Made by a program: the position numbers and the translations under genes. A stretch of 50,611 bases of DNA from NCBI GenBank assembly GCA_937889395.1, contig CALAOW010000084.1, positions 1 through 50,611 on the forward strand. Direction: 5' to 3'. Each line of letters begins with the position of its first letter. Position 1 is the stretch's first letter. Source of the DNA: an uncultured Pseudomonadota bacterium (GTDB lineage Bacteria; Desulfobacterota; Binatia; Binatales; Binataceae). Under the pieces are notes generated by a model. It made no database searches and had not been told where the DNA came from. It saw only the letters and a program-made list of their open reading frames with translations. This document shows, in pieces, positions 4,298 through 50,611 of this stretch.

Positions 4298-5968
4298 ATG
4301 GCTGAAGAACAGAAAAAGATGCTGCCGACGCTGGGCTTGACCGGAGTCACGGTCAACGCGATGGCGCTCATCGCCCCGGGAGCCTTCCTGTGGATTACAT
4401 TCGTCGTTCAAGCGGGATACGCGTACCCGTCCGGTATGGCGATGTGGGCTGGTATTTTCGTGGCGCTGCTACTGGCGTACGCGACGGCAATTTCGTACTC
4501 GGAGCTCGCCAAACTTTATCCGGGAGCGGGCAGTTCGTACCTGTTTGCGGAGCAGGCCTTCTTGAGCAAAACCCACGCGTACAAGTTCGCGCGCGTGGCC
4601 AAGTTCGTAATCGGATGGTCGTCGCATCTCTATTACTGGATGTATCCCGGCGTCATGGTCGCCACGATGGGCATCATGATCGGGTACATCGTCGGCACGG
4701 TCGCGCCGAGCACGATGAACGCGGGAATTCCCGGCCCGGTATTCATGGCGATAATTGCAATAATTTTCGCTTACGCGGTGGCGTGGATCGCGTTCCGGGG
4801 AGTCAACGGTTCCACCATCGTCAATATCGGGATCAACGGAATCCAGATCGTGGCGCTGCTGTTCTTTTCCGCGCTGGCGATCGCTTACCGCGCCGCGCAT
4901 CCCGCGGGCTCGGCGGGCTTTGCGCTCGATGCCAACGGCAACTCGATCGCTGCGACAATTGGCGCTTACGGTATAACCGGCGACCACCCGTCGCACGCCA
5001 GCGCACTCTCGGTCCTCCTGCCGCATAGGTTTGACTGGGTGATGCTGCAGGCGACGGTCGCGATTCTGCTGCTGGTCGGCTTCGAGTCGGTGACTGCGCT
5101 CGGCGAGGAAGCGAAGAACCCCAAAAAGGACATCCCGCGCGGCGTTCTGCTCTCGCTCACGATCCAGGGATTGTTCTGCTACCTGATCGAATACTTCGCC
5201 GCCAACTATTTCCTGAACAGCGCCTACAGTCTTGCGGAGGCCAAAGGATCGGCGGCGCCGCTCGGCGACATGATGGTGATCATCGGCAACGCGCTGCTCG
5301 GCGGACACGGCCAGGCGTTCATGCTGATGGAAGCGCTGACGGTTTTTCTGGCGCTGATCGGCACTACGCTGTCGTGCATCAACACCGGCGCGCGCGTGAC
5401 CTACGCGATGGGGCGTGACGAGGAAGTGCCCGAGCACTTCGGTCTGCTGCACGGCAAGAACCTGACGCCGCATCGCGCGATTTGGGTGCTGGCAACGATA
5501 TCGGCAATCCTTGGTGCATACGCCGCGCTGTTCTACTTCGCGGGCGCGTCGGCGCCTGATGACAAGACGATTGCGACGCTGCCGCACAACCTGTGGTACT
5601 CGCTCGGAATGAGCTCCAACGCGTCACTCTCGTCGCTGCCCAACGGGTTGCTGCTGGTCACTCTCACTTCAAACTTCGGAACCTTTCTGCTCTACGGTCT
5701 GACCAACATTGTGTGTATCGTCGCCTACTCGGAGCGTGACGAGTTCCACGGATTCAAGCACATGGTGGTGCCGGTGTTCGGCGCGATCGCGAACTTTGCC
5801 TGCCTCGCGTTCTACATCATAGGACCGCTGGAGGGGCTCGGCAGCGTCAAGGAACCGCTGATGGCGGTGGCGATCTCCGTGATTTGGGGAATCTACGGCG
5901 CGATTTACTTCGTCCGTAATTCCAAGAAGCGGGGCAAAGAGACGATTCTCGTAGCCAAGCCGGCCTGA
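4298..5968 (+). CDS. APC-superfamily amino acid/polyamine permease
   Basis: 556 aa and about 12 hydrophobic segments. The N-terminus LGLTGVTVNAMALIAPGAFLW...SYSELAKLYPGAGSSYLF is typical of APC permeases. RBS GAAGGAGG precedes the ATG. Confidence 0.8.
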   Translation: MAEEQKKMLPTLGLTGVTVNAMALIAPGAFLWITFVVQAGYAYPSGMAMWAGIFVALLLAYATAISYSELAKLYPGAGSSYLFAEQAFLSKTHAYKFARVAKFVIGWSSHLYYWMYPGVMVATMGIMIGYIVGTVAPSTMNAGIPGPVFMAIIAIIFAYAVAWIAFRGVNGSTIVNIGINGIQIVALLFFSALAIAYRAAHPAGSAGFALDANGNSIAATIGAYGITGDHPSHASALSVLLPHRFDWVMLQATVAILLLVGFESVTALGEEAKNPKKDIPRGVLLSLTIQGLFCYLIEYFAANYFLNSAYSLAEAKGSAAPLGDMMVIIGNALLGGHGQAFMLMEALTVFLALIGTTLSCINTGARVTYAMGRDEEVPEHFGLLHGKNLTPHRAIWVLATISAILGAYAALFYFAGASAPDDKTIATLPHNLWYSLGMSSNASLSSLPNGLLLVTLTSNFGTFLLYGLTNIVCIVAYSERDEFHGFKHMVVPVFGAIANFACLAFYIIGPLEGLGSVKEPLMAVAISVIWGIYGAIYFVRNSKKRGKETILVAKPA

Positions 5969-6083
5969 TCCCAGGCGCTGGTTTGGCGAATAATCCGTGG
6001 GGCGAGCCGTGAGCGATCGCGGCCCGCCCCTTGGCCGTTCAACGGACTTTACTCCTCAGCGTTAGCCGGGTAGCTCACTGCAA

Positions 6084-6911
6084 ATGGATTCGTCGCTCTC
6101 CGCTCTGCCTTCGGTAGAGCAGGCTTTCGAGCTGGCGCTATTGTCCGACGTAGGTACGGACCGCGCCGACAATGAAGACTCGTGCGGGCATTTCATCGAG
6201 AGTCCCGACAGCGTGATGTTCGCGATTGCCGACGGCGTCGGCGGCTACGAAGGGGGTGAAATCGCAAGCCGGATGGCGATCGACATAACGCTTGAAGCTT
6301 ACCGCGAGAGCCCGCCAGCGTGGGGCGCCGCCAAGCGGCTCCATCGCGCGGTTACGCGAGCCAACATCGAGATTCACGACAAGGCGCTGACCGTGCCGGA
6401 ACTGGGCCGGATGGCGACCACGATGACCGCGGTCGCGGTGGAGAAGGGGATGCTGTCGGCGGTGCATGTCGGAGATTGCCGGCTCCATCTGATCCGTCAC
6501 GGCCGAATCTCGCAAGTCACAAAAGATCACACGATGGTCGCCGACCGGGTCAGGATGGGCGTGATGTCGGCGGCTCGCGCGAAGAATCATCCGGAGCGCG
6601 GGATGCTTCTGCGCAGCCTTGGGCACGAGTTGATCGTGTCGATCGATCGGATCGCGATGCCGCTGCTGGAGCGCGATCGCCTGCTACTGTGCAGCGACGG
6701 ACTCTACAATGTACTGGATGACAAGGAACTGGAATCACTGACGCGCGGCGTTGACGCCGAGACGGGATGCCGCAATTTGATCGACACGGCCAATAACCGC
6801 GGTACCGCCGACAATCTGACCTGCGCTGTCTTCAGAATGACGTCGCCCACCGGGCACACGGCGACCACCGGCGGATGGCGCGATCGATTGCGAGGATTGT
6901 TCGGACGATGA
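6084..6911 (+). CDS. PP2C-family Ser/Thr protein phosphatase
   Basis: Motifs DVGTDRADNEDS, ADGVGGYEGGEIAS, VGDCRLHLIRHG, TKDHT, LLLCSDGLYNVL, DNLTCAVF. Confidence 0.85.
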   Translation: MDSSLSALPSVEQAFELALLSDVGTDRADNEDSCGHFIESPDSVMFAIADGVGGYEGGEIASRMAIDITLEAYRESPPAWGAAKRLHRAVTRANIEIHDKALTVPELGRMATTMTAVAVEKGMLSAVHVGDCRLHLIRHGRISQVTKDHTMVADRVRMGVMSAARAKNHPERGMLLRSLGHELIVSIDRIAMPLLERDRLLLCSDGLYNVLDDKELESLTRGVDAETGCRNLIDTANNRGTADNLTCAVFRMTSPTGHTATTGGWRDRLRGLFGR

Positions 6912-39670: not shown

Positions 39671-40003
39671 ATGGCTGATGCAGCACCGACGACACCTAAG
39701 GAAATCTTTGCGGCGATGCCCGGTCGCTTCAACAAGGACGCGGCGAAGGGTTTGACTGCGACGTACCAGTTCGACCTCTCGGGCGATAACGGCGGCAAGT
39801 GGCACGTAGTCATCGCCGACCAAACGTGCACGGTCAAAGAAGGACCGGCCGCTTCGCCGAGCATCACGATTTCGATGACGGCGCAGGACTATGTTGACAT
39901 GACGAGCGGCAAGCTCAACGGGCAGGTCGCCTTCATGAGCGGCAAACTGCGAGTCGCAGGCGACATGGGCCTCGCGCTCCGCATGCAGAGTTTGTTTGCC
40001 TAA
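39671..40003 (+). CDS. SCP2 sterol-binding domain protein
   Basis: KGLTATYQFDLSGDNGGKWHVVIADQTCTVKEG...MTAQDYVDMTSGKLNGQVAFMSGKLRVAGDMGLALRMQSLF is the canonical SCP2 pattern. Start taken at the internal ATG with an RBS. Confidence 0.85.
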   Translation: MADAAPTTPKEIFAAMPGRFNKDAAKGLTATYQFDLSGDNGGKWHVVIADQTCTVKEGPAASPSITISMTAQDYVDMTSGKLNGQVAFMSGKLRVAGDMGLALRMQSLFA

Positions 40004-40033
40004 ACCACCAATCCCAGATCCGAATGAATTGAA

Positions 40034-40067
40034 CGCCGGCCGGAGCCAAAACCAGGCCCGGCCGGCG
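40034..40067 (+). terminator. GC-rich hairpin downstream of the SCP2 gene
   Basis: CGCCGGCCGG, a 14-nt loop, then CCGGCCGGCG. No T-run follows. Confidence 0.3.
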
Positions 40068-40303
40068 GAAAATCCGCCTGCAAAGTATCCCGCATAAAAT
40101 CATCCCAAGCCGAAACGCGCCGATAAAACTCAGATTCGGTACGCAGTCGATAGACAATCTTATCCACTGATTAACGACCCCAGGCTGCCGCGAGCGCGAG
40201 CGCCGATTAGTGTCAGTACATCAATTTCGGAAACTAAAATCCTGTTTCTTAAACGTTCCCAAGCAAGGAGGACAAATCCACGTCACAAGAAGAAAGAACA
40301 CAA

Positions 40304-40591
40304 ATGAGTTCCGCGGAGTTTGAGGGCGACCTCGACAAGGAAAGCGGAGAATCGACCGAGAACGGCCAGGACAACGAATCGCTGACCTCAAAACTGTCGA
40401 AGGAGCTCAGCAACTGGCGGCGCAATCGCACCTCGTCGCAGCCACGGCATTCTGACGGACCGGGTCAGAACTTTCAGTCAGAGCCGGCTCGCACGATCAA
40501 GGTCCGCGGTCACGAGACTTTGGTCGTTCGCAAACCGAAGCTGGCCGGCAAGCCCCCCACCAATATGAATCACACACCAAATAATCAGTAG
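40304..40591 (+). CDS. Hypothetical small acidic/low-complexity protein
   Basis: 95-aa ORF in an AT-richer intergenic stretch. The strong AAGGAGG lies 31 nt upstream, which is too far for a normal RBS. No recognisable motif. Confidence 0.3.
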   Translation: MSSAEFEGDLDKESGESTENGQDNESLTSKLSKELSNWRRNRTSSQPRHSDGPGQNFQSEPARTIKVRGHETLVVRKPKLAGKPPTNMNHTPNNQ

Positions 40592-40638
40592 TCAGTTTTT
40601 CACTTGTCCGCGGATGTGTGGTGGGGCGTGCGCAGGGG

Positions 40639-43142: not shown

Positions 43143-44402
43143 CTAAATCGAGCCGGCGGCTCGCAGTTTGTTCAATCGCTCGGGCGCAATCCCGAGAAGC
43201 CCGCGGTAAATCTCGTCGCTATGCTCGCCGATTCGCGGCGCGCGAGTGGTCGATCCGATCGGGGTCGCGGTCAGTTTCGCGAATGGTCCCGGAAATGTCA
43301 GCGTGCGGCCGATGCTGTCGTGCGGCACCGCAGTCCAGAAGTCGCGCGCTTTGAGCTGCTCGTCGGCTGCGATGTCGGCGGCCGTCGCGACCGGCGCGAG
43401 AAAGATGCGGCGCTTGAGTCCCTGCGCGTAGATTTCGCGCTTGGTCATCGTGAGCATGAAGCGCTGGATCGTGGCTTCGAGTTCTTCGGTCTCCTTGTGG
43501 TCCTGCTCGGTCATATCCATGAAGAGGCCCGGCACCCACGAAATCCAATCCTTGGTCCGCATCCAGTCCGACCCCAATCCGTTCTCCCGCATCCACTCGA
43601 TCAGCGCCTTGGTCGAATTGCCGAACGTCATGCCGCCGGCGATCAGGGTCGAGATGTGCCCGTCCTTGCATTGGTACACCATCTTGCGCCGTGCGTCGGC
43701 CGAGCCGACGAAACCCCCGGTGCGCGTCAGATAGCTGCCGTGCAGGAACGGCATCGCCTGTTCGTTCATCAGCGTCCACACGATGCAGGCCTGCATGTTG
43801 ACGACGATTCGCTGGCCGAGCCCGTCGATTCGGCGCGGGTAGTGCGCGAGCATCATAGCCACCGCGGCCTCGCCGCCCGCGTGCAATCCGGCTTGCGGCA
43901 GACTCATTTGGAGTGGAGGCTTTCCCTCCTCGCCCATCAGGTACATCTGGCCGCCGGCCGCCCACGAGATGATGTCGGCCCAGGCGTAGTCTTTGCCCGG
44001 ACCCGTATCGCCGAACGGCGTGATCGACGCATAGATGAGGCGCGGATTTCTCTTGGCGAGCGTGTCGTAGCCGAGACCGATTGAATCGAGATAGCCGAGC
44101 GGGTGCGACTCGACGAGAAAATCGGATTGCGCCGCAAGATCGGCGACCAGTGCGCGCCCGTCGTCAGTGGCGAGGTTGGCGGTCACGGATTTTTTCCCCG
44201 CGTGATAGGCGATCGAATAGAGGCAGTGGTCGGGGTCGGCGATATCTTCGAGATAGGGCGGGATGCGCCGCGTCGAGCATCCATCGGGCGGTTCGACCTT
44301 GATAACTTCGGCGCCGAGATCGGCGAACATCTTGCCGCACAACGCGCCCTTCTCGTCGGTCAAATCGAGCAGTCGCAATCCTTTGAGCAACCTTGATGGC
44401 AT
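43143..44402 (-). CDS. Family III CoA-transferase (CaiB/BaiF), second paralog
   Basis: Start taken at the internal Met (MPSRLLKGLRLLDLTDEKGALCGKMFADLGAEVIKVEPPDG). Confidence 0.8.
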   Translation of the reverse strand: MPSRLLKGLRLLDLTDEKGALCGKMFADLGAEVIKVEPPDGCSTRRIPPYLEDIADPDHCLYSIAYHAGKKSVTANLATDDGRALVADLAAQSDFLVESHPLGYLDSIGLGYDTLAKRNPRLIYASITPFGDTGPGKDYAWADIISWAAGGQMYLMGEEGKPPLQMSLPQAGLHAGGEAAVAMMLAHYPRRIDGLGQRIVVNMQACIVWTLMNEQAMPFLHGSYLTRTGGFVGSADARRKMVYQCKDGHISTLIAGGMTFGNSTKALIEWMRENGLGSDWMRTKDWISWVPGLFMDMTEQDHKETEELEATIQRFMLTMTKREIYAQGLKRRIFLAPVATAADIAADEQLKARDFWTAVPHDSIGRTLTFPGPFAKLTATPIGSTTRAPRIGEHSDEIYRGLLGIAPERLNKLRAAGSI

Positions 44403-44690
44403 CGGTGAATTAAACCTCGCGAAAGCGCCGGCGCGCCCGCAAATCCCGTTTCGCAACTCCGCCCGCGCGTCAATCTTGGAAGTTTATATCCTACCGCGCC
44501 AAAGATGTAACGGCGCCCCCCTAAAACCAGCGCGCGTAAGCTGTAAAATCTGATTCAGATGGAGGGGCAGGGGGGCGCAAAGGGGAATTACCCATATTGA
44601 CACAATACCCCCATTGGGACATCGTTGCTTTTGACATATCTCCCATTTGGCTGCGTCTCATCTAATGGAGACGATATTAGGGGAACCCAT

Positions 44691-45047
44691 ATGACCAGGA
44701 CGACCGGCACGGCGACCATATTGAACAAAAGCTTTAAGCGGGTCGGCGACGCCACACTGGATGAGCGAAAGCGAATCTCTTTGACCAGAGCCTTGGAATC
44801 CTTGAAGGAAATTTTGGGCAACGAAAACGATTTGGATGCTGCCGTTCGATTTGGGATCTACGTAAACGACGCCGGCCAGCTATTGCTGACGCCGGAGGTT
44901 TCAGTGCCGATGCATGAAGCGTGGCTCTACCAACGAAAAAACCCGCAAGCGCTGAAAAAAGTCGTCAAGGGATTGGAAGAGGCTCGCGAGGGCAAATTTA
45001 TAGACTTGGGATCGTTCGAGAAATACGCGGATGACGATATTGACTAG
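44691..45047 (+). CDS. Type II antitoxin, AbrB/SpoVT-like N-terminus
   Basis: Start taken at ATG 44691. ATLDERKRISLTRAL resembles a swapped-hairpin DNA-binding strand. Acidic C-terminus. Sits 12 nt upstream of the toxin gene. Promoter-like TTGACA boxes and an inverted repeat CGTCTC-N8-GAGACG lie upstream (44658-44677 region). Confidence 0.6.
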   Translation: MTRTTGTATILNKSFKRVGDATLDERKRISLTRALESLKEILGNENDLDAAVRFGIYVNDAGQLLLTPEVSVPMHEAWLYQRKNPQALKKVVKGLEEAREGKFIDLGSFEKYADDDID

Positions 45048-45059
45048 AGGAGCGATCCG

Positions 45060-45359
45060 GTGCGGAAGTTCAAGTTGCTTTTCACGCCGGAACCACAAGG
45101 ATCACTGGTAGCTCTAACCAAAGACCCAGGTGCGGCAAAAAGACTCCGCGCTGTTCGCAAGACGCTCGGGCTTTTGGAAAGCAATCCCCGTCATCCGAGT
45201 TTGCGGACACATGGATACTCGAAGCTTTTTGGTCCACAAGGCCAGAAGGTCTTCGAGGCATACGCTGAAAACAAGACGCCGGCCGCATTTCGCGTATTTT
45301 GGTACTACGGTCCTGAAACCGCCCAAATGACAATTGTGGCGATTACACCGCACCCCTAA
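45060..45359 (+). CDS. Type II toxin, RelE/ParE superfamily
   Basis: 99 aa. HPSLRTHGYSKL...AFRVFWYYGPETAQMTIVAITPHP matches the RelE/ParE C-terminal pattern (..R..w.......i.i..i.pH). GTG start. Confidence 0.7.
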   Translation: MRKFKLLFTPEPQGSLVALTKDPGAAKRLRAVRKTLGLLESNPRHPSLRTHGYSKLFGPQGQKVFEAYAENKTPAAFRVFWYYGPETAQMTIVAITPHP

Positions 45360-45389
45360 CGACGCTTCCAGAGTCTGACCTGGAGACAC

Positions 45390-45415
45390 AAGAAGGCCCC
45401 CGCGGGGGCCTTCTT
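45390..45415. terminator. Strong GC hairpin after the TA pair
   Basis: AAGAAGGCCCC-cgcg-GGGGCCTTCTT, 30 nt after the toxin stop. Symmetric A/T flanks suggest bidirectional use. Confidence 0.65.
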
Positions 45416-45497
45416 GCGTCTCTCACTGATGTACTTTTACTCCGGCCAACTGACGCAGTTTTAGTCCGGCGTTGACAGGCGGGTCGTGAACGCACGA

Positions 45498-45623
45498 TTA
45501 TTTCTTGGACAGGTTGTTAATCACGACCACCAGCAGGACCACCACCAGTACGCCGATCACCGGCCAAATCCACATCCCTCCGCCCATCCATCCGCCCATC
45601 CATCCGTCTGTATGGTTCATCAT
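45498..45623 (-). CDS. Tiny Gly/Met/Trp-rich single-TM peptide (41 aa)
   Basis: MMNHTDGWMGGWMGGGMWIWPVIGVLVVVLLVVVINNLSKK. Start taken at the internal Met pair with GAAAGG upstream. Directly downstream of the Met-rich protein gene. Confidence 0.5.
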   Translation of the reverse strand: MMNHTDGWMGGWMGGGMWIWPVIGVLVVVLLVVVINNLSKK

Positions 45624-45756
45624 AAAGCGCCTTTCGTTGCGCTGCGACCAGCGCACCACTGGGCAATCCAGACCGCGAGCGCAGGCAGTGTCATTTGAAG
45701 TAGCCGCCACAGGACCGCAGCAACCGTTCGTCGCGGGGCATCGTGGCGCTCAGCAA

Positions 45757-46209
45757 TCATTTCTGTTCTTTTTGGGCATCCCCTGATTTTTCACCCATAT
45801 CCTGCATCATCGGACACTGCGACATGGATTCCTTGCCTATCTGCATATGCTGCATCATGTGCTTCATCATCTTCTCCTCCATCTCCGCCTTTCGCGCATC
45901 CATAGCGATCCGCTGCTCCGCCATGTGGGTGACCACGGCGGCCATCAGGCCCATCTTCTTGTCCTCCGGCGCGCGGTTCATATTGGCGAGCTCCTCGGTG
46001 AGTTGAGCGTCTTGAGCCTTCGCGTCTTCCTTCATTTTCTGTTTCTGTTCCTTCATTTCCTGGCAGCGTTCCGTCATTTTGGCCTCCGTCATGTTTTTCC
46101 CCTCCGCAGGCTCGGCGGATCGCGCTTGGACTGGAAACCAGATGGCCAGGGCCAAGGCCAATGCGAGGCTTGAACGGATGACGAGGTTCGTATTCGTTTG
46201 GTTTTTCAT
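45757..46209 (-). CDS. Secreted Met/His-rich protein (putative Cu(I)/Ag(I)-type metal binding)
   Basis: Signal peptide (SLALALALAIWFPVQARS). The mature part is helical and rich in M/K/E/Q, with clusters MEEKMMKHMMQHMQ and SQCPMMQDM. Confidence 0.6.
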   Translation of the reverse strand: MKNQTNTNLVIRSSLALALALAIWFPVQARSAEPAEGKNMTEAKMTERCQEMKEQKQKMKEDAKAQDAQLTEELANMNRAPEDKKMGLMAAVVTHMAEQRIAMDARKAEMEEKMMKHMMQHMQIGKESMSQCPMMQDMGEKSGDAQKEQK

Positions 46210-46542
46210 GTTCTGTTGCTTTCCTTTCGTTTTTCGTTTTTGTTCGCTGTTGGCGTACGGCTGACAGCGTGTTTAAGAAATCGGTTTCACCCCGAATCTG
46301 CACGGGTGTCAACACTCATATTGCGCCGGCGGCAGCGGACTTCGCTATGGGTATAACCCTGCCGTGTATTATGAATGGACACCATCTTGCTTTTCCACCC
46401 TTGAGACCCCCCTTTGCGGCCCAGTGCAACGGCAGCGGGGTCTTTGCCATCGTCTGGCTTCTCCGGCTTGCACCCTCACCTCTGTCAAGGCAACGGTTTT
46501 CTAAACTGAACTACTACTGGGCAAAGAGAGGCGAACGGCGGG

Positions 46543-47358: not shown

Positions 47359-47561
47359 AGCCGGTGCCGGCTCCCTGTCCGGCCCGTCTTGAAGCTAGAT
47401 CAGCCCAGCCAACCGCGCAACGCCGCCGCGCCCGGCGCGAGTCGTCGAGCGTCGGGAAAGGGTCCAAATCCCAAGATGCCCTTCTCGGCGCGCTCTTCTT
47501 TTCCGTCCCTCCGCCCGAAGCGCAGCACCCCCGCCTCTCTTCCCGATCCTCTCTCTTAATT

Positions 47562-47585
47562 CCCTCTCCCTGTATCGGGAGAGGG
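47562..47585. repeat. Perfect 9-bp palindromic hairpin (REP-like)
   Basis: CCCTCTCCC-tgtatc-GGGAGAGGG followed by cagggtgaggg. Lies in a noncoding stretch. Confidence 0.6.
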
Positions 47586-47801
47586 CAGGGTGAGGGACAT
47601 CTGCGGCGCGAATGTCCGATGCGCCGCATGATCGCTCCCCTCCGTTATATTTGGATCCCGACCGAAGCGCAGCGACCCCGGATCTTTTTCCGCAGCTTCC
47701 TGATCGCGGAGACGCGGCGTCTCTGCGGACGCTGGCCATGACCCTTTTCGCTGGCCAAGTCCGCGCGCCGCCGGGTATGAGGTCACTCTTCTTGCGCTCC
47801 C

Positions 47802-47848
47802 AAGGACTGAAAATCCTTGTGTCGAGTGTTCGATTCACTCCCTGCCCA
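47802..47848 (+). other. 3' half of a tRNA-Phe(GAA) gene (att-like remnant)
   Basis: AAGGA CTGAAAA TCCTT (anticodon arm, GAA), GTGTC (variable), GAGTG TTCGATT CACTC (T arm), CCTGCCC A (acceptor plus discriminator). The 26 nt upstream cannot form the acceptor or D arm. The GC drop begins immediately downstream. Confidence 0.7.
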
Positions 47849-47917
47849 TCAAAAAGCCCGCATTTTTACGAGATATAATGGAAGGGCCTCGGGCAAGCTC
47901 GGGCGGGGCCGGAGCCG

Positions 47918-48006
47918 AATGAGATCAAATGAGATCAAACGGATCTCGACCGATTTCGACCGATATCGGCGACTGTGGACAGATTGTTGAGGAAATTGTT
48001 GAGGAA
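47918..48006. repeat. Three adjacent tandem duplications upstream of the orphan cassette
   Basis: aatgagatca x2 (47918-47937); tcgaccgat-t-tcgaccgat (47946-47964); attgttgaggaa x2 (47983-48006). Ends 96 nt before the ATG at 48102. Confidence 0.85.
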
Positions 48007-48101
48007 TCTCGTGCCTCCCAATTGAAAGCACCACCTACCGCGCGCATCCTCGAAATAAGGGGCAGCGAAAAAGCGCCTGCCGGGGAAAAAAGGGAGCACA
48101 A

Positions 48102-48350
48102 ATGAGCGACGAAATCGACCTTACGAAAAGAATGGGATTCTCTGAAGAGCTGTTGAAGGACTGCGGATCGGGAAGCCCTCCCGACTACCAGCGGTGGCTG
48201 CAAGAAAAACGCAGGACGCAGGTAGCGCCCGGTGAGTTTTGGTTCTATGTAAACCACGCGGATTCCCCAGACGCGACTGCGGATGCCATCAAGCAACAAA
48301 TCGGTGAGATATATAAGACGCTGATCGTTCGCGTGTATAGTCGGTACTGA
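48102..48350 (+). CDS. Hypothetical small protein (cassette gene A, 82 aa)
   Basis: GGGAG lies 7 nt upstream of the ATG. No recognisable motif. First gene of a tightly spaced same-strand set. Confidence 0.5.
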   Translation: MSDEIDLTKRMGFSEELLKDCGSGSPPDYQRWLQEKRRTQVAPGEFWFYVNHADSPDATADAIKQQIGEIYKTLIVRVYSRY

Positions 48351-48377
48351 AAGGCCGAGATCGCGGTCAGAGGAGAG

Positions 48378-49166
48378 TTGACCTTGCCTTCCAAACGAAC
48401 CCAGCCCACGGAGACACCGCCTAATCTGCCGCCCGAGAGAGCTTACGCAGTTCTGAAAGCTCAACTGGAAAAGCTGCAACTCCTGAAGGGCCGCAACTAT
48501 CAAGAGGCTAAGGCGGCGGAGGCTGAATGGTTCCAACTGACCGGGAAACTCGTACTTCGGTCTTTTGGCAGCGAGAGCACGAACTACAGCAATTTTCGGA
48601 GAGGACTCTCAGCAGGTGAGCATTTCGCGATTATGGACGGAGTTGTACCTCATGGTCGGTATCAACGGAATTTTGAAGCTCGGCAACAGGCTTACGAAGC
48701 TGCCCTGAAGAGCTGCATCGGAGAGCTTGAGCTAGACTTGCCTGATACTGGAATTAAAGGAGTGTACGAACCGGGAGAACAGTACGAATATTATCGTGAC
48801 GTGGCTACCTGCCTGAAGCTCGCACAGAAAGAGATTTTCATTATCGATCCGTATCTAAGCGCCGAAATATTTGACGTTTATGCTGGTGCCATCCCGCGTA
48901 CTGTACGCTTCCGTCTTCTGAGTGCGAGCATACCTGCAGACGTTAAGATCTTGGCCCATAAGTATGCTTCTGGTGGTAACCTCGGATTTCGCAGCAGTGC
49001 TTCGATTCATGACCGTGTTCTGTTCGCTGACGACCGCGTGTGGGTGTCGGGGCAATCTCTCAAGGACGCAGCGCGAAGCAAGCCAACATACATCGTGGAG
49101 CTCGATGAGCCTTCAATGCGCAAAATGTATGAGCCAATTTGGAACTCGGCATCGAGCGTAATCTGA
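48378..49166 (+). CDS. Helical N-terminal region plus single-HKD phospholipase D/nuclease-like domain, HxR variant (cassette gene B)
   Basis: C-terminal IHDRVLFADDRVWVSGQSL aligns position-for-position with PLD HxK(x)4D(x)6G (H0, R2 for K, D7, G14). An upstream strand KEIFIIDPYLSAEIFDVYAGAIPRTVRFRLLSA is typical of the PLDc_2 N-terminal half. TTG start at 48378 or 48384 after GGAGAG. Confidence 0.65.
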   Translation: MTLPSKRTQPTETPPNLPPERAYAVLKAQLEKLQLLKGRNYQEAKAAEAEWFQLTGKLVLRSFGSESTNYSNFRRGLSAGEHFAIMDGVVPHGRYQRNFEARQQAYEAALKSCIGELELDLPDTGIKGVYEPGEQYEYYRDVATCLKLAQKEIFIIDPYLSAEIFDVYAGAIPRTVRFRLLSASIPADVKILAHKYASGGNLGFRSSASIHDRVLFADDRVWVSGQSLKDAARSKPTYIVELDEPSMRKMYEPIWNSASSVI

Positions 49167-49216
49167 TCAAAGGAACTCCGCGCCACAACGCAGCCTATTA
49201 GGAGGTGTCTCTGAAA

Positions 49217-49573
49217 ATGAAGGCCCATATGTATAATCACCCCAAGATTAAGAATTGGCCGCCAGCTACCGGCGGTTCATACGGTCCGGGAGATGTTTTT
49301 CCTTCGCCTGGGGAAGGCAAGCTGCACAACGTCACGTTCGTTGATGCCTCCCGGCAAACCGGGTCTGAGCACCTACGAGTTGTGGTTGAATTTCGGGGGA
49401 GGCTTTCCAGCGGAGGGGTGTTTGCAGCCGACCCAGAAGACCATCGGGCGCTCCCCGTGCTATTCGATGAGTTGAAGAACCAGATCGGCAAAGAGATGGA
49501 AGACATTACCAATATGGAGTTTGATCTCTCACCCGCCACGCTGGCGCGCTCGCGCTTGTGGGCTGGTTTCTGA
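49217..49573 (+). CDS. Hypothetical small protein (cassette gene C, 118 aa)
   Basis: ATG 49217 after TAGGAGG. No recognisable motif. Confidence 0.5.
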   Translation: MKAHMYNHPKIKNWPPATGGSYGPGDVFPSPGEGKLHNVTFVDASRQTGSEHLRVVVEFRGRLSSGGVFAADPEDHRALPVLFDELKNQIGKEMEDITNMEFDLSPATLARSRLWAGF

Positions 49574-49588
49574 TGCTGCCGCCAATCA

Positions 49589-50071
49589 ATGAACGGAGGG
49601 GGGATCGTGGAAAGTGAACAGTTAATCTTGATTTGGGACAAGTACGAGCAAATCGCAATGCACTTCAACGGGCTGCTGATCCATTTGAGAACGCAAGCCT
49701 TGGGAGCGGTCGCCACGATTGTCACTGCGGCGGGTTTCTTACTTACCCGATCACCCGAGCCGCTGAAGCATCAATGGTGGGCAGTATGTGCGGTGTCCGT
49801 CTTGCTGTTTTTTGCGTGGTGTACGCTCTGGATGATCGACGTTTGCTATTACAGCAGATTGCTTCTCGGCGCAGTGAACGCCTTAGTCAAGATTGAGAAA
49901 CAGAGCGGCGGGCTGCTCGATCTAAGCACGCAAGTGCAGAAACTCTTCGGCGTCCCGAGGGAAGACGCGACGCGATTGAACTGGCAAATCTACGCGTTCT
50001 ATATGCCCGTCGGGCTCTTTCTGGTGTGTGTGATAGGGGTCTCGTTGTGCCAAGCTCTTCACTCTGGGTAG
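49589..50071 (+). CDS. Hypothetical 3-TM membrane protein (cassette gene D)
   Basis: N-terminal amphipathic helix (LILIWDKYEQIAMHFNGLLIHLRTQ). TM segments ALGAVATIVTAAGFLL, WWAVCAVSVLLFFAWCTLWMI and IYAFYMPVGLFLVCVIGVSL. The start may be GTG 49607 (GGAGGGG upstream). Confidence 0.6.
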   Translation: MNGGGIVESEQLILIWDKYEQIAMHFNGLLIHLRTQALGAVATIVTAAGFLLTRSPEPLKHQWWAVCAVSVLLFFAWCTLWMIDVCYYSRLLLGAVNALVKIEKQSGGLLDLSTQVQKLFGVPREDATRLNWQIYAFYMPVGLFLVCVIGVSLCQALHSG

Positions 50072-50276
50072 GGGTCGCCGGGCAAGAGTGACCGCGGCCG
50101 CCCTCTCGCGCGTCATCTCCACCTAATCGCGCCGCAATCGGGTAGGACAAAGGATTCTCCCTCCTATGCTCCCGGATTAGCCGCGCAAATGGACTGATCG
50201 CCACCATTCACCGCGAACTGCCCAGCGGCTTGTGCTCGACCATCCCCCTTAACCTGTTCTAACAGAGCCCGTTCGA

Positions 50277-50321: not shown

Positions 50322-50348
50322 CCCGCATCCCGCGGCGGTGCCGATTCT

Positions 50349-50370
50349 CTTTTCACTTTCCCCTTTTCAC
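50349..50370. repeat. GTGAAAA-type short tract (opposite orientation)
   Basis: cttttcactttccccttttcac is the reverse complement of gtgaaaaggggaaagtgaaaag. Same motif family as 28046-28106. Confidence 0.6.
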
Positions 50371-50437
50371 CGGGTGCAGGCGTCACCCCTGGCCGCGCGC
50401 GACAACGGAGCGCGGCCTTAACACTGCGTTGCCGTCG

Positions 50438-50477
50438 CCACGGCCAGGGGCCGCAGCCCCTGCCGCGTGGGTTTTTT
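50438..50477 (+). terminator. Intrinsic (rho-independent) terminator candidate
   Basis: Long imperfect GC hairpin ccacggccaggggc-cgca-gcccctgccgcgtgg, followed by G and TTTTTT (50472-50477). Confidence 0.55.
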
Positions 50478-50611
50478 CACTGGCCAGCCGTGCCAACGGC
50501 CGCAGGTGATTCTTCCTTCATGCCGCCGCCAACGACGCGCCCGCCGGGTCCCCCGCCGCCGCCTTAGCCGGACTCGCCGACTGTGCTAGGTTTCAAAAAT
50601 GGCACGGCGCA

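Follow-up and report, generated by a model that had tools for sequence, protein, structure and literature searches.

The window analysed here is a stretch of 50,611 nucleotides (nt) from an uncultured bacterium of the Binataceae (GCA_937889395.1, contig CALAOW010000084.1), and near its right-hand end lies an islet of four small genes, here called A to D, flanked by a fragment of a tRNA-Phe gene, short duplications and hairpins (Table 1). A first-pass annotation of the sequence had read these genes as one cassette and as a candidate undescribed defence system. Its gene calls are borne out, with four open reading frames (ORFs) on the same strand, a GGAG-type ribosome-binding site (RBS) read before all four starts, and purifying selection on the genes. 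In gene B a second TTG codon is better positioned after GAGGAG and yields the protein of 260 amino acids (aa) found in the protein database, and in gene D the GTG is where every homologue begins. The gap between A and B is 27 (or 33) nt, that between B and C 50 nt and that between C and D 15 (or 33) nt. Relatives were drawn from metagenome contigs and metagenome-assembled genomes (MAGs) of Acidobacteriota and Binataceae (related loci carry L numbers below), and pairwise ratios of nonsynonymous to synonymous divergence (dN/dS) against them were 0.08-0.30, except in two low-divergence comparisons (A with L076, 0.72; D with L065, 0.54). With these set aside, the values were 0.09-0.30 for A, 0.20 for C and 0.08-0.15 for D, and because of these low ratios we regard A to D as real coding genes.

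The islet had also been described as poorer in GC than a core of about 70%. Our analysis shows that 47851-50074 has a GC content of 53.3%, the lowest of all 2.2-kb stretches in the window, but the remainder of the window is at ~62% rather than 70% (61.6% for the window as a whole). GC content at third codon positions (GC3) is 0.53-0.68 in A to D against 0.78-0.85 in the three core genes checked. The low GC and GC3 and the adjoining tRNA-Phe fragment support horizontal acquisition of the islet. Genes A and C, in which no motif had been recognised, gave no match in Pfam, PADLOC, NCBIfam, PHROGs or PDB sequences, and are narrowly distributed, lineage-restricted small proteins.

Table 1. Features of the islet, its flanks and the neighbouring part of the window, in window coordinates (PLD, phospholipase D; AF2, AlphaFold2; REP, repetitive extragenic palindrome; TA, toxin-antitoxin; TRF, Tandem Repeats Finder).
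Feature	Position	Strand	Description
Gene A	48102-48350	+	82 aa; ORF with GGAG-type RBS
Gene B	48378-49166, or more likely 48384-49166	+	262 or 260 aa
Gene B, N-terminal four-helix domain	48384-48749	+	residues 1-122; AF2 helices 17-118
Gene B, C-terminal single PLD-fold domain	48750-49166	+	H209 codon at 49008-49010
Gene C	49217-49573	+	118 aa
Gene D	49589-50071, or from GTG 49607-50071 according to homologues	+	160 or 154 aa
Remnant of secreted-protein 5' coding end	49533-49583	+	signal peptide ..HAGALALVGWFLMLPP..; alignment of copies, six-frame reading
tRNA-Phe 3' fragment	47805-47848	+	anticodon arm with GAA, variable loop, T arm, 3' acceptor strand; sequence and predicted fold
Upstream region of A	47842-48101	+	three two-copy tandem duplications: 47918-47939, 47942-47968, 47983-48006 (TRF)
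Conserved non-coding element	50094-50194	.	85-88% identical in L063/L064 and L075/L076
Perfect 18-bp inverted repeat	50277-50294/50304-50321	.	9-nt loop; probably REP-like or terminator of neighbouring gene
Terminator-like GC hairpin, then T-run	about 50459-50481	+	sequence
TA-like ORF pair	44625-45047, 45060-45359		second ORF 99 aa

Domain architecture of gene B

In the AlphaFold2 model of B (predicted local distance difference test, pLDDT, 84), four helices, which correspond to the N-terminal helical region already noted in the first annotation, are followed by an alpha/beta domain (residues 126-258). Foldseek comparison of the model with the PDB returned TrmBL2, FAM83/DUF1669, vaccinia F13, PssA, Zucchini, NucT and PLD1-4 at a probability of 1.0, the best structural match being TrmBL2 (E 9e-9, TM-score 0.41, whole chain). 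As these hits were obtained with a confident model, the C-terminal half of B is assigned to the phospholipase D (PLD) fold, and the earlier description of a single C-terminal PLD-like domain with an HxR motif holds. The motif reads H209-D-R211-V-L-F-A-D216-x6-G223-Q-S-L-K227-D-A-A...K-P-T-Y and is invariant in 28 close and 26 distant relatives, the latter including proteins of ~232 aa from gammaproteobacteria, betaproteobacteria and archaea; its range thus runs from Acidobacteriota to gammaproteobacteria and archaea. Because an HxR variant lacking the usual Asn is invariant across the family, B is placed in a divergent PLD clade of putative catalytic activity, and it offers a handle on this HxR branch of the PLD superfamily.

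No Pfam family was assigned to B. PADLOC analysis revealed matches to the C-terminal part of two profiles of the candidate system PDC-S05 (PDLC04879, E 1.8e-11; PDLC04869, E 5.9e-10), and the ~232-aa relatives give the same C-terminal-only match, along with weak matches to PLDc_2, DrmC, MkoC and Regulator_TrmB. In E. coli, one PDC-S05 representative is reported to have lowered plating by about 1000-fold for T7 and T5 and to have protected against T4 as well (bioRxiv 10.1101/2024.09.26.614923). Like a single-gene candidate of this kind, B combines the matching C-terminal domain with the lack of a conserved neighbour (59 loci, see below); unlike it, B has a different, PDC-S35-like domain as its N-terminal half, the assayed representative having been described as carrying a RhuM domain (bioRxiv 10.1101/2024.09.26.614923). 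B also resembles Nuc, NucT, BfiI, Zucchini/PLD6, DrmC and MkoC in that each chain has a single PLD-fold domain (Foldseek E 1e-4 to 1e-3). Single-domain PLD nucleases such as Nuc, BfiI and Zucchini dimerise, building one active site from two chains, and B, which keeps the His and Asp of HxKx4D, would likewise need a dimer. It differs from Nuc, NucT, BfiI and Zucchini/PLD6 in its invariant Arg in place of Lys, in GQSx and KDAA in place of GSxN, and in the extra helical N-terminal domain.

An exhaustive HMMER search with residues 1-122 of B recovered 211 representatives, in which the same domain heads PLD-type proteins of ~260 aa, proteins of 310-450 aa with a C-terminal TIR_2/SEFIR domain (PADLOC spbK and ThsB-like matches), and proteins of 425-541 aa with a C-terminal cytidine/dCMP deaminase (dCMP_cyt_deam_1). 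It also weakly matches the N-terminus of the PADLOC candidate PDC-S35. The TIR protein P0162 and the PLD-type protein P0029 are 77% identical over residues 1-122 and unrelated beyond, which reads as a recent exchange whose breakpoint coincides with the predicted limit between the two domains. B therefore shares with SpbK/ThsB-like TIR proteins and with PDC-S35 the plan of a single effector domain placed after an N-terminal module, and its module is homologous to that of proteins whose C-terminus matches spbK, ThsB or TIR_2; unlike them, B carries a PLD-fold domain and not a TIR domain. The N-terminal domain would thus be a shared sensor or scaffold module. Since it occurs with interchangeable effectors and no neighbour of B is conserved, B is best regarded as a self-contained unit, and it is a new architecture among candidate single-gene defence proteins, joining a PDC-S35-like module to a PDC-S05-like HxR PLD domain. 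B is in this respect a testable single-gene candidate, and the exchange of its N-terminal module among PLD-like, TIR and deaminase proteins offers a handle on infection sensing.

Gene neighbourhoods, gene D and mosaic junctions

The first-pass annotation read the four genes as one system and proposed to check whether homologues of B and D occur together; comparison with related loci does not support the four-gene system. The searches gave 302 homologues of B (all unannotated), 32 of D, 7 clusters for C and, for A, 9 related metagenome loci at 65-100% identity. At none of 59 genome loci from GTDB species representatives did tblastn detect A, C or D in the ±8 kb around the B homologue, and all-against-all clustering of the ORFs within ±3 kb of B at these 59 loci gave only antisense shadow ORFs as recurrent neighbours. 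The full set A-B-C-D is confined to the window and L073, a copy 98.8% identical to it. Elsewhere the genes stand separately or in partial sets: A-B-D in L077, B-D in L060, A-B in L070/L078, L071 and L074, C-D with a 269-aa gene in L065, L066 and L068, C-D on contigs that end inside D in L067 and L069, and D with the 269-aa gene in L063 and L064. Gene A accompanies an unrelated 360-aa gene in L075 and L076, and an A-like gene occurs alone amid small secreted-protein genes in L079-L081. D lies beside type I restriction-modification (R-M), integrase and TIR/nucleoside 2-deoxyribosyltransferase (NDT)-like genes in L061 and L062, and in other mobile-element contexts in L072 and L082-L085. The closest relatives of B (87-88% identical; L070/L078, L071, L074) lack D, most relatives of D lack B, and the only recurring neighbours of D are C (7 loci) and the 269-aa gene (5 closely related loci). 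The annotation had stated that the proposal would fall if homologues of the four genes never co-occurred, and this is essentially what was found, since all four occur together only in the near-identical copy L073. The genes have been shuffled independently among related bacteria, which argues that they are not one machine.

Gene A moves together with ~260 nt of upstream DNA, including the tandem duplications, at 87-88% identity in L075/L076 (from 47842) and in L070 (from 47919). In L076 it is followed after 20 nt by the 360-aa ORF (5267-6349, +), which is unrelated to B, so A is not specific to B. Neither this ORF nor seven further genes that adjoin B or D homologues in related loci gave a match in Pfam or PADLOC, and the 360-aa gene gave none in PDB; its product contains an RNKFVH motif (Rx4H, HEPN-like). 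A could be a small regulator or merely the first gene of the hotspot.

For D, the annotation had described an amphipathic N-terminal helix followed by three transmembrane segments. The helix (W..YE..AMHFN..L..LR.Q) and two strongly hydrophobic segments stand in the hydropathy profile, but the third segment is weaker, giving 2-3 transmembrane segments. D matches the membrane component of PADLOC Hydrolase-TM (PDLC03009; E 9.1e-6) over positions 22-116 of the 210 in the profile. This component is hit by every one of the 29 aligned sequences of the D family (window D and 28 relatives; best E 1.9e-10), whereas the Pfam family 8xMP (PF24838) is matched by 18 of them at E<0.01, below its threshold. 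The window D itself reaches 12.3 bits against 8xMP (gathering cut-off 30) and 3 homologues have a precomputed match, which indicates a distant relationship only; literature searches found no descriptions of the 8xMP and Hydrolase-TM families. Like these, the D family consists of small multi-transmembrane proteins in defence and mobile contexts, here with type I R-M, integrases, TIR/NDT-like genes, AbiEi_4, DUF4145 and transposases. Unlike Hydrolase-TM, D has no adjacent hydrolase partner here or in related loci: PADLOC detected no Hydrolase-TM hydrolase among A, B, C and four D-flanking genes in L060, L061, L064 and L072, the upstream neighbours in related loci having been scanned against Pfam only. 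A TIR/NDT-like gene lies directly 3' of a D-family gene on two unrelated contigs (L061, 8833-9987; L082, 5483-5932), the neighbour in L082 matching Nuc_deoxyrib_tr. The pair in L061 sits in a ~10-kb island between a tRNA-Val with integrase and a tRNA-Phe fragment, with type I R-M aboard. The D family moves as a single gene beside changing partners, and we read D as a small membrane protein that is mobile on its own and that may serve changing neighbouring enzymes as an oligomeric anchor or effector. Because B and D both match PADLOC candidate or system profiles (PDC-S05 and Hydrolase-TM), the combination, which the annotation could not assign to any named system, is not wholly unrecognised.

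The DNA of the islet is made of two sharp-edged blocks, 47919-49191 (A-B), 87% identical to L070, and 49214-50074 (C-D), 90.7% identical to L065, and within the second block divergence from L065 is discordant (synonymous divergence, dS, 0.43 for C and 0.07 for D). At the C-D junction lies the remnant of a secreted-protein gene listed in Table 1; the last ~13 codons of C use another frame of it, and it extends into the C-D spacer. The same 50-nt piece is repeated several times in L079-L081. An integron cassette with an attC site was considered for this piece and ruled out by alignment and ORF reading, since the spacers of 15-50 nt are too short for attC and the piece is the coding start of a secreted-protein signal peptide. 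The secreted-protein family is multi-copy, with the conserved signal-peptide start M..RHAAALALVGWYLM.PP, and intact members occur in L081 (4588-4938, -; 5260-5523, -; 6080-6457, -) and L061 (7628-7969); the family is also represented in L076 (7868-8191, -). Its paralogues are 90-97% identical at the DNA start and differ in their mature parts, several ending in C..DDPRLK.K, and the conserved ends of these genes seem to act as recombination anchors in variable regions. An intact member precedes D in L061 and only a truncated remnant does so in L063, L065 and the window, and L077 and L060 carry a degenerate copy of the same remnant between B and D. Alignment of the window junction with these two loci shows that C sits within the remnant that elsewhere separates B from D, which identifies C as a later insertion; a C-D segment like that of L065 may have carried it in, with D as the homology anchor. 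As its accessory genes were juxtaposed by recombination, the islet is not a co-evolved operon.

Interpretation of the islet

We consider it rather probable that 47.85-50.07 kb is a horizontally acquired, hypervariable mosaic islet in which B is a stand-alone candidate conflict gene and D is independent of it. An integrative element would have left the tRNA-Phe fragment, beside which recombination would have juxtaposed accessory genes. B would be the functional core, a self-contained single-protein conflict gene that is probably anti-phage, with residues 1-122 acting as a trigger-sensing or oligomerising module. By analogy with Nuc, BfiI and Zucchini, its PLD domain would dimerise into one active site, and the dimer may cleave phosphodiester bonds, most likely of nucleic acid, on sensing infection. 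D would travel in mobile elements and defence islands with ever-changing neighbours and would probably form membrane oligomers that work as effector or anchor, A with its own upstream region would precede varied genes, and C would have been inserted in the truncated secreted-protein gene between B and D. The islet should no longer be treated as a candidate for a new defence system of several components; it is a worked example of a false operon, in which unrelated genes were stitched together at a hotspot and the junction scars are still legible.

Several points weigh against this reading. The proposed defence role derives from homology to candidate families, and because the PDC-S05 match covers only the C-terminal ~40% (~110-130 of 285-306 profile positions, between ~157 and 298) and the assayed representative has a RhuM domain, the phage phenotype may not transfer to B. 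The AF2 model of D is of medium confidence (pLDDT 72), and D had no structural match in Foldseek against PDB or in a profile search of PDB sequences. The four tightly spaced same-strand genes are probably co-transcribed here, and B and D are neighbours in three diverged loci (the window, L060 and L077; dS 0.7-1.1), which might mean that they are functionally connected in this lineage. B departs from the canonical HxK(x)4D(x)6G(S/T)xN pattern, with Arg replacing Lys and the Asn of GSxN missing. Finally, the PLD-like domains of TrmBL2, TrmB and FAM83 are non-catalytic, and TrmBL2 is the best structural match of B.

These last points would fit an islet of neutral, horizontally transferred cargo with no conflict system at all, B being a TrmBL2-like non-catalytic PLD-fold protein that binds nucleic acid or a ligand, or a regulator, and D a generic small membrane protein, and the lack of an assigned Pfam family and the heterogeneous neighbourhoods of the B family in genomes are in keeping with it. 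In TrmBL2 and TrmB (an archaeal chromatin protein and regulator), as in B, the C-terminal domain is PLD-like and the part before it is helical. We nevertheless think this unlikely, as B keeps the invariant His, Asp, Arg, Asp and GQSxKD that are missing from TrmBL2-type pseudo-enzymes, so that its site is not degenerate, and as its N-terminal region is all-helical, without the winged-helix DNA-binding domain of TrmBL2. The same module is otherwise fused to effectors typical of immunity, namely TIR and deaminase domains. In addition, the PLD-like domain matches PDC-S05, DrmC and MkoC, and R-M, TIR, Abi and mobile-element genes abound around members of the D family.

A lineage-specific two-component system of B and D, with or without A, in which a PLD-type enzyme works with a membrane partner, much as enzyme and membrane protein are paired in Hydrolase-TM, and C is a passenger, would account for B preceding D in the window/L073, L060 and L077, at dS of ~0.7-1.1 for both genes and with the same degenerate signal-peptide remnant between them. 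D moreover belongs to the family of the membrane component of a two-gene PADLOC system, and members of this family adjoin enzyme-type conflict genes (TIR/NDT-like in L061, Nuc_deoxyrib_tr in L082). One ancestral junction is common to the three loci, however, so that they represent a single event of juxtaposition, and the insertion of C between the two genes was tolerated. With D missing from the closest B relatives and from 59 of 59 genome B loci, and B from most relatives of D, we judge such a system improbable. A genuine four-gene cooperative system, with A and C as adaptors, B as nuclease and D as membrane effector, seems to us highly improbable: the shared strand, the short spacers, the individual RBSs, the purifying selection on all four genes and the presence of the intact set in two independent metagenome assemblies (the window and L073) argue for it, but the full set is found only in these near-identical copies and every sub-combination is found elsewhere. 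Furthermore, C has just 7 homologue clusters and was inserted in a scar, A precedes an unrelated gene in L076, and nothing is conserved near B in 59 genomes.

Returning to the mosaic islet with B as a stand-alone gene, a more ambitious extension of it can be put forward tentatively, as somewhat less likely than not: the B family would comprise undescribed single-protein immune sensors with an active HxR PLD branch and D-type plug-in partners. The ~120-residue four-helix N-terminal domain would then be the trigger-recognition or assembly module, and recombination at a fixed boundary (ELELDLP) would join it to a PLD phosphodiesterase, TIR or cytidine deaminase effector. The clade with HDR...GQSxKDAA would form a branch of the PLD superfamily that has catalytic activity and has so far gone uncharacterised, and small membrane proteins of the D type would plug in beside such enzymes as promiscuous partners.

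Flanking elements and the rest of the window

The tRNA-Phe element at the left edge of the islet, whose T arm reads GAGTG-TTCGATT-CACTC, is also present at L061 (10161-10210). Because ARAGORN and Rfam detect no complete tRNA in the whole window, it is no more than a fragment, and we regard it as the att-like scar of an integrative element. The annotation had already named an att-like scar here; the 3' fragment is real, and the full tRNA and a right-hand att partner are missing. Of the features expected of an island, the tRNA-derived att repeat at the boundary is present, and within the window there is neither a second copy of the fragment to its right nor a homologue of the integrases and transposases of related loci; the window stops 540 nt right of D, and the right island boundary lies outside it. 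The 'repeat array' reported on the left proved instead to be the three two-copy duplications upstream of A, in a region that probably holds the promoter or operator. The annotation had also considered that the islet might belong to a recognisable prophage or plasmid module, and none was found: a viral-contig collection held one distant relative each for B and D, and a plasmid collection gave weak partial matches only.

The perfect 18-bp palindrome and the intrinsic terminator described to the right of D were both found, and a Candidatus Binataceae MAG carries a similar copy of the palindrome element (L029, 2639-2686; 87.5% over 48 nt). The conserved element at 50094-50194 follows D, the 269-aa gene and an 86-aa gene in L063/L064, and A with the 360-aa gene in L075/L076. 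Shorter non-coding pieces (50322-50357 and 50390-50429) likewise recur 3' of differing variable genes in L063, L075 and L076, the identity of the right-flank elements in these loci being 85-100%. Since they recur after different variable genes, these elements mark a type of hotspot and not a system; they may represent repeat sequences, encode a small RNA or simply be a marker of the hotspot. In L076 they also occur at 2243-2385, a site without variable genes. No Rfam family was matched at the gathering threshold anywhere in the window, the right-flank elements included, and a permissive scan of 47.3-50.6 kb gave sub-threshold matches only (Antizyme_FSE, 29.6 against 40 bits; beta_tmRNA, 13.6 bits). 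The Antizyme_FSE match (47545-47602, -; E 0.001) falls on the GC-rich hairpin ccctctccctgtatcgggagagggcagggtgaggg and is almost certainly due to chance, the element being a REP-like intergenic hairpin.

A nearby TA module had also been proposed, and the ORF pair concerned (44.6-45.4 kb) has no Pfam or PDB match that would support a known toxin or antitoxin family; the homologues of its 99-aa member are all 'hypothetical' plasmid genes, including those of cyanobacteria, actinobacteria and Lactobacillus. The pair lies in a second low-GC stretch (44400-46500, 54%), which also encodes a Gly/Trp/Met-rich membrane peptide of 70 aa (45498-45710, -) and a Met-rich secreted protein of 150 aa (45757-46209, -), both without a Pfam match. 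The genes further left are ordinary metabolic ones, among them a Fumble/BadF-type ATPase, CoA-transferases and an FtsX-type permease, and a further short low-GC stretch (~52%) with strong AT skew lies at 40000-40600.

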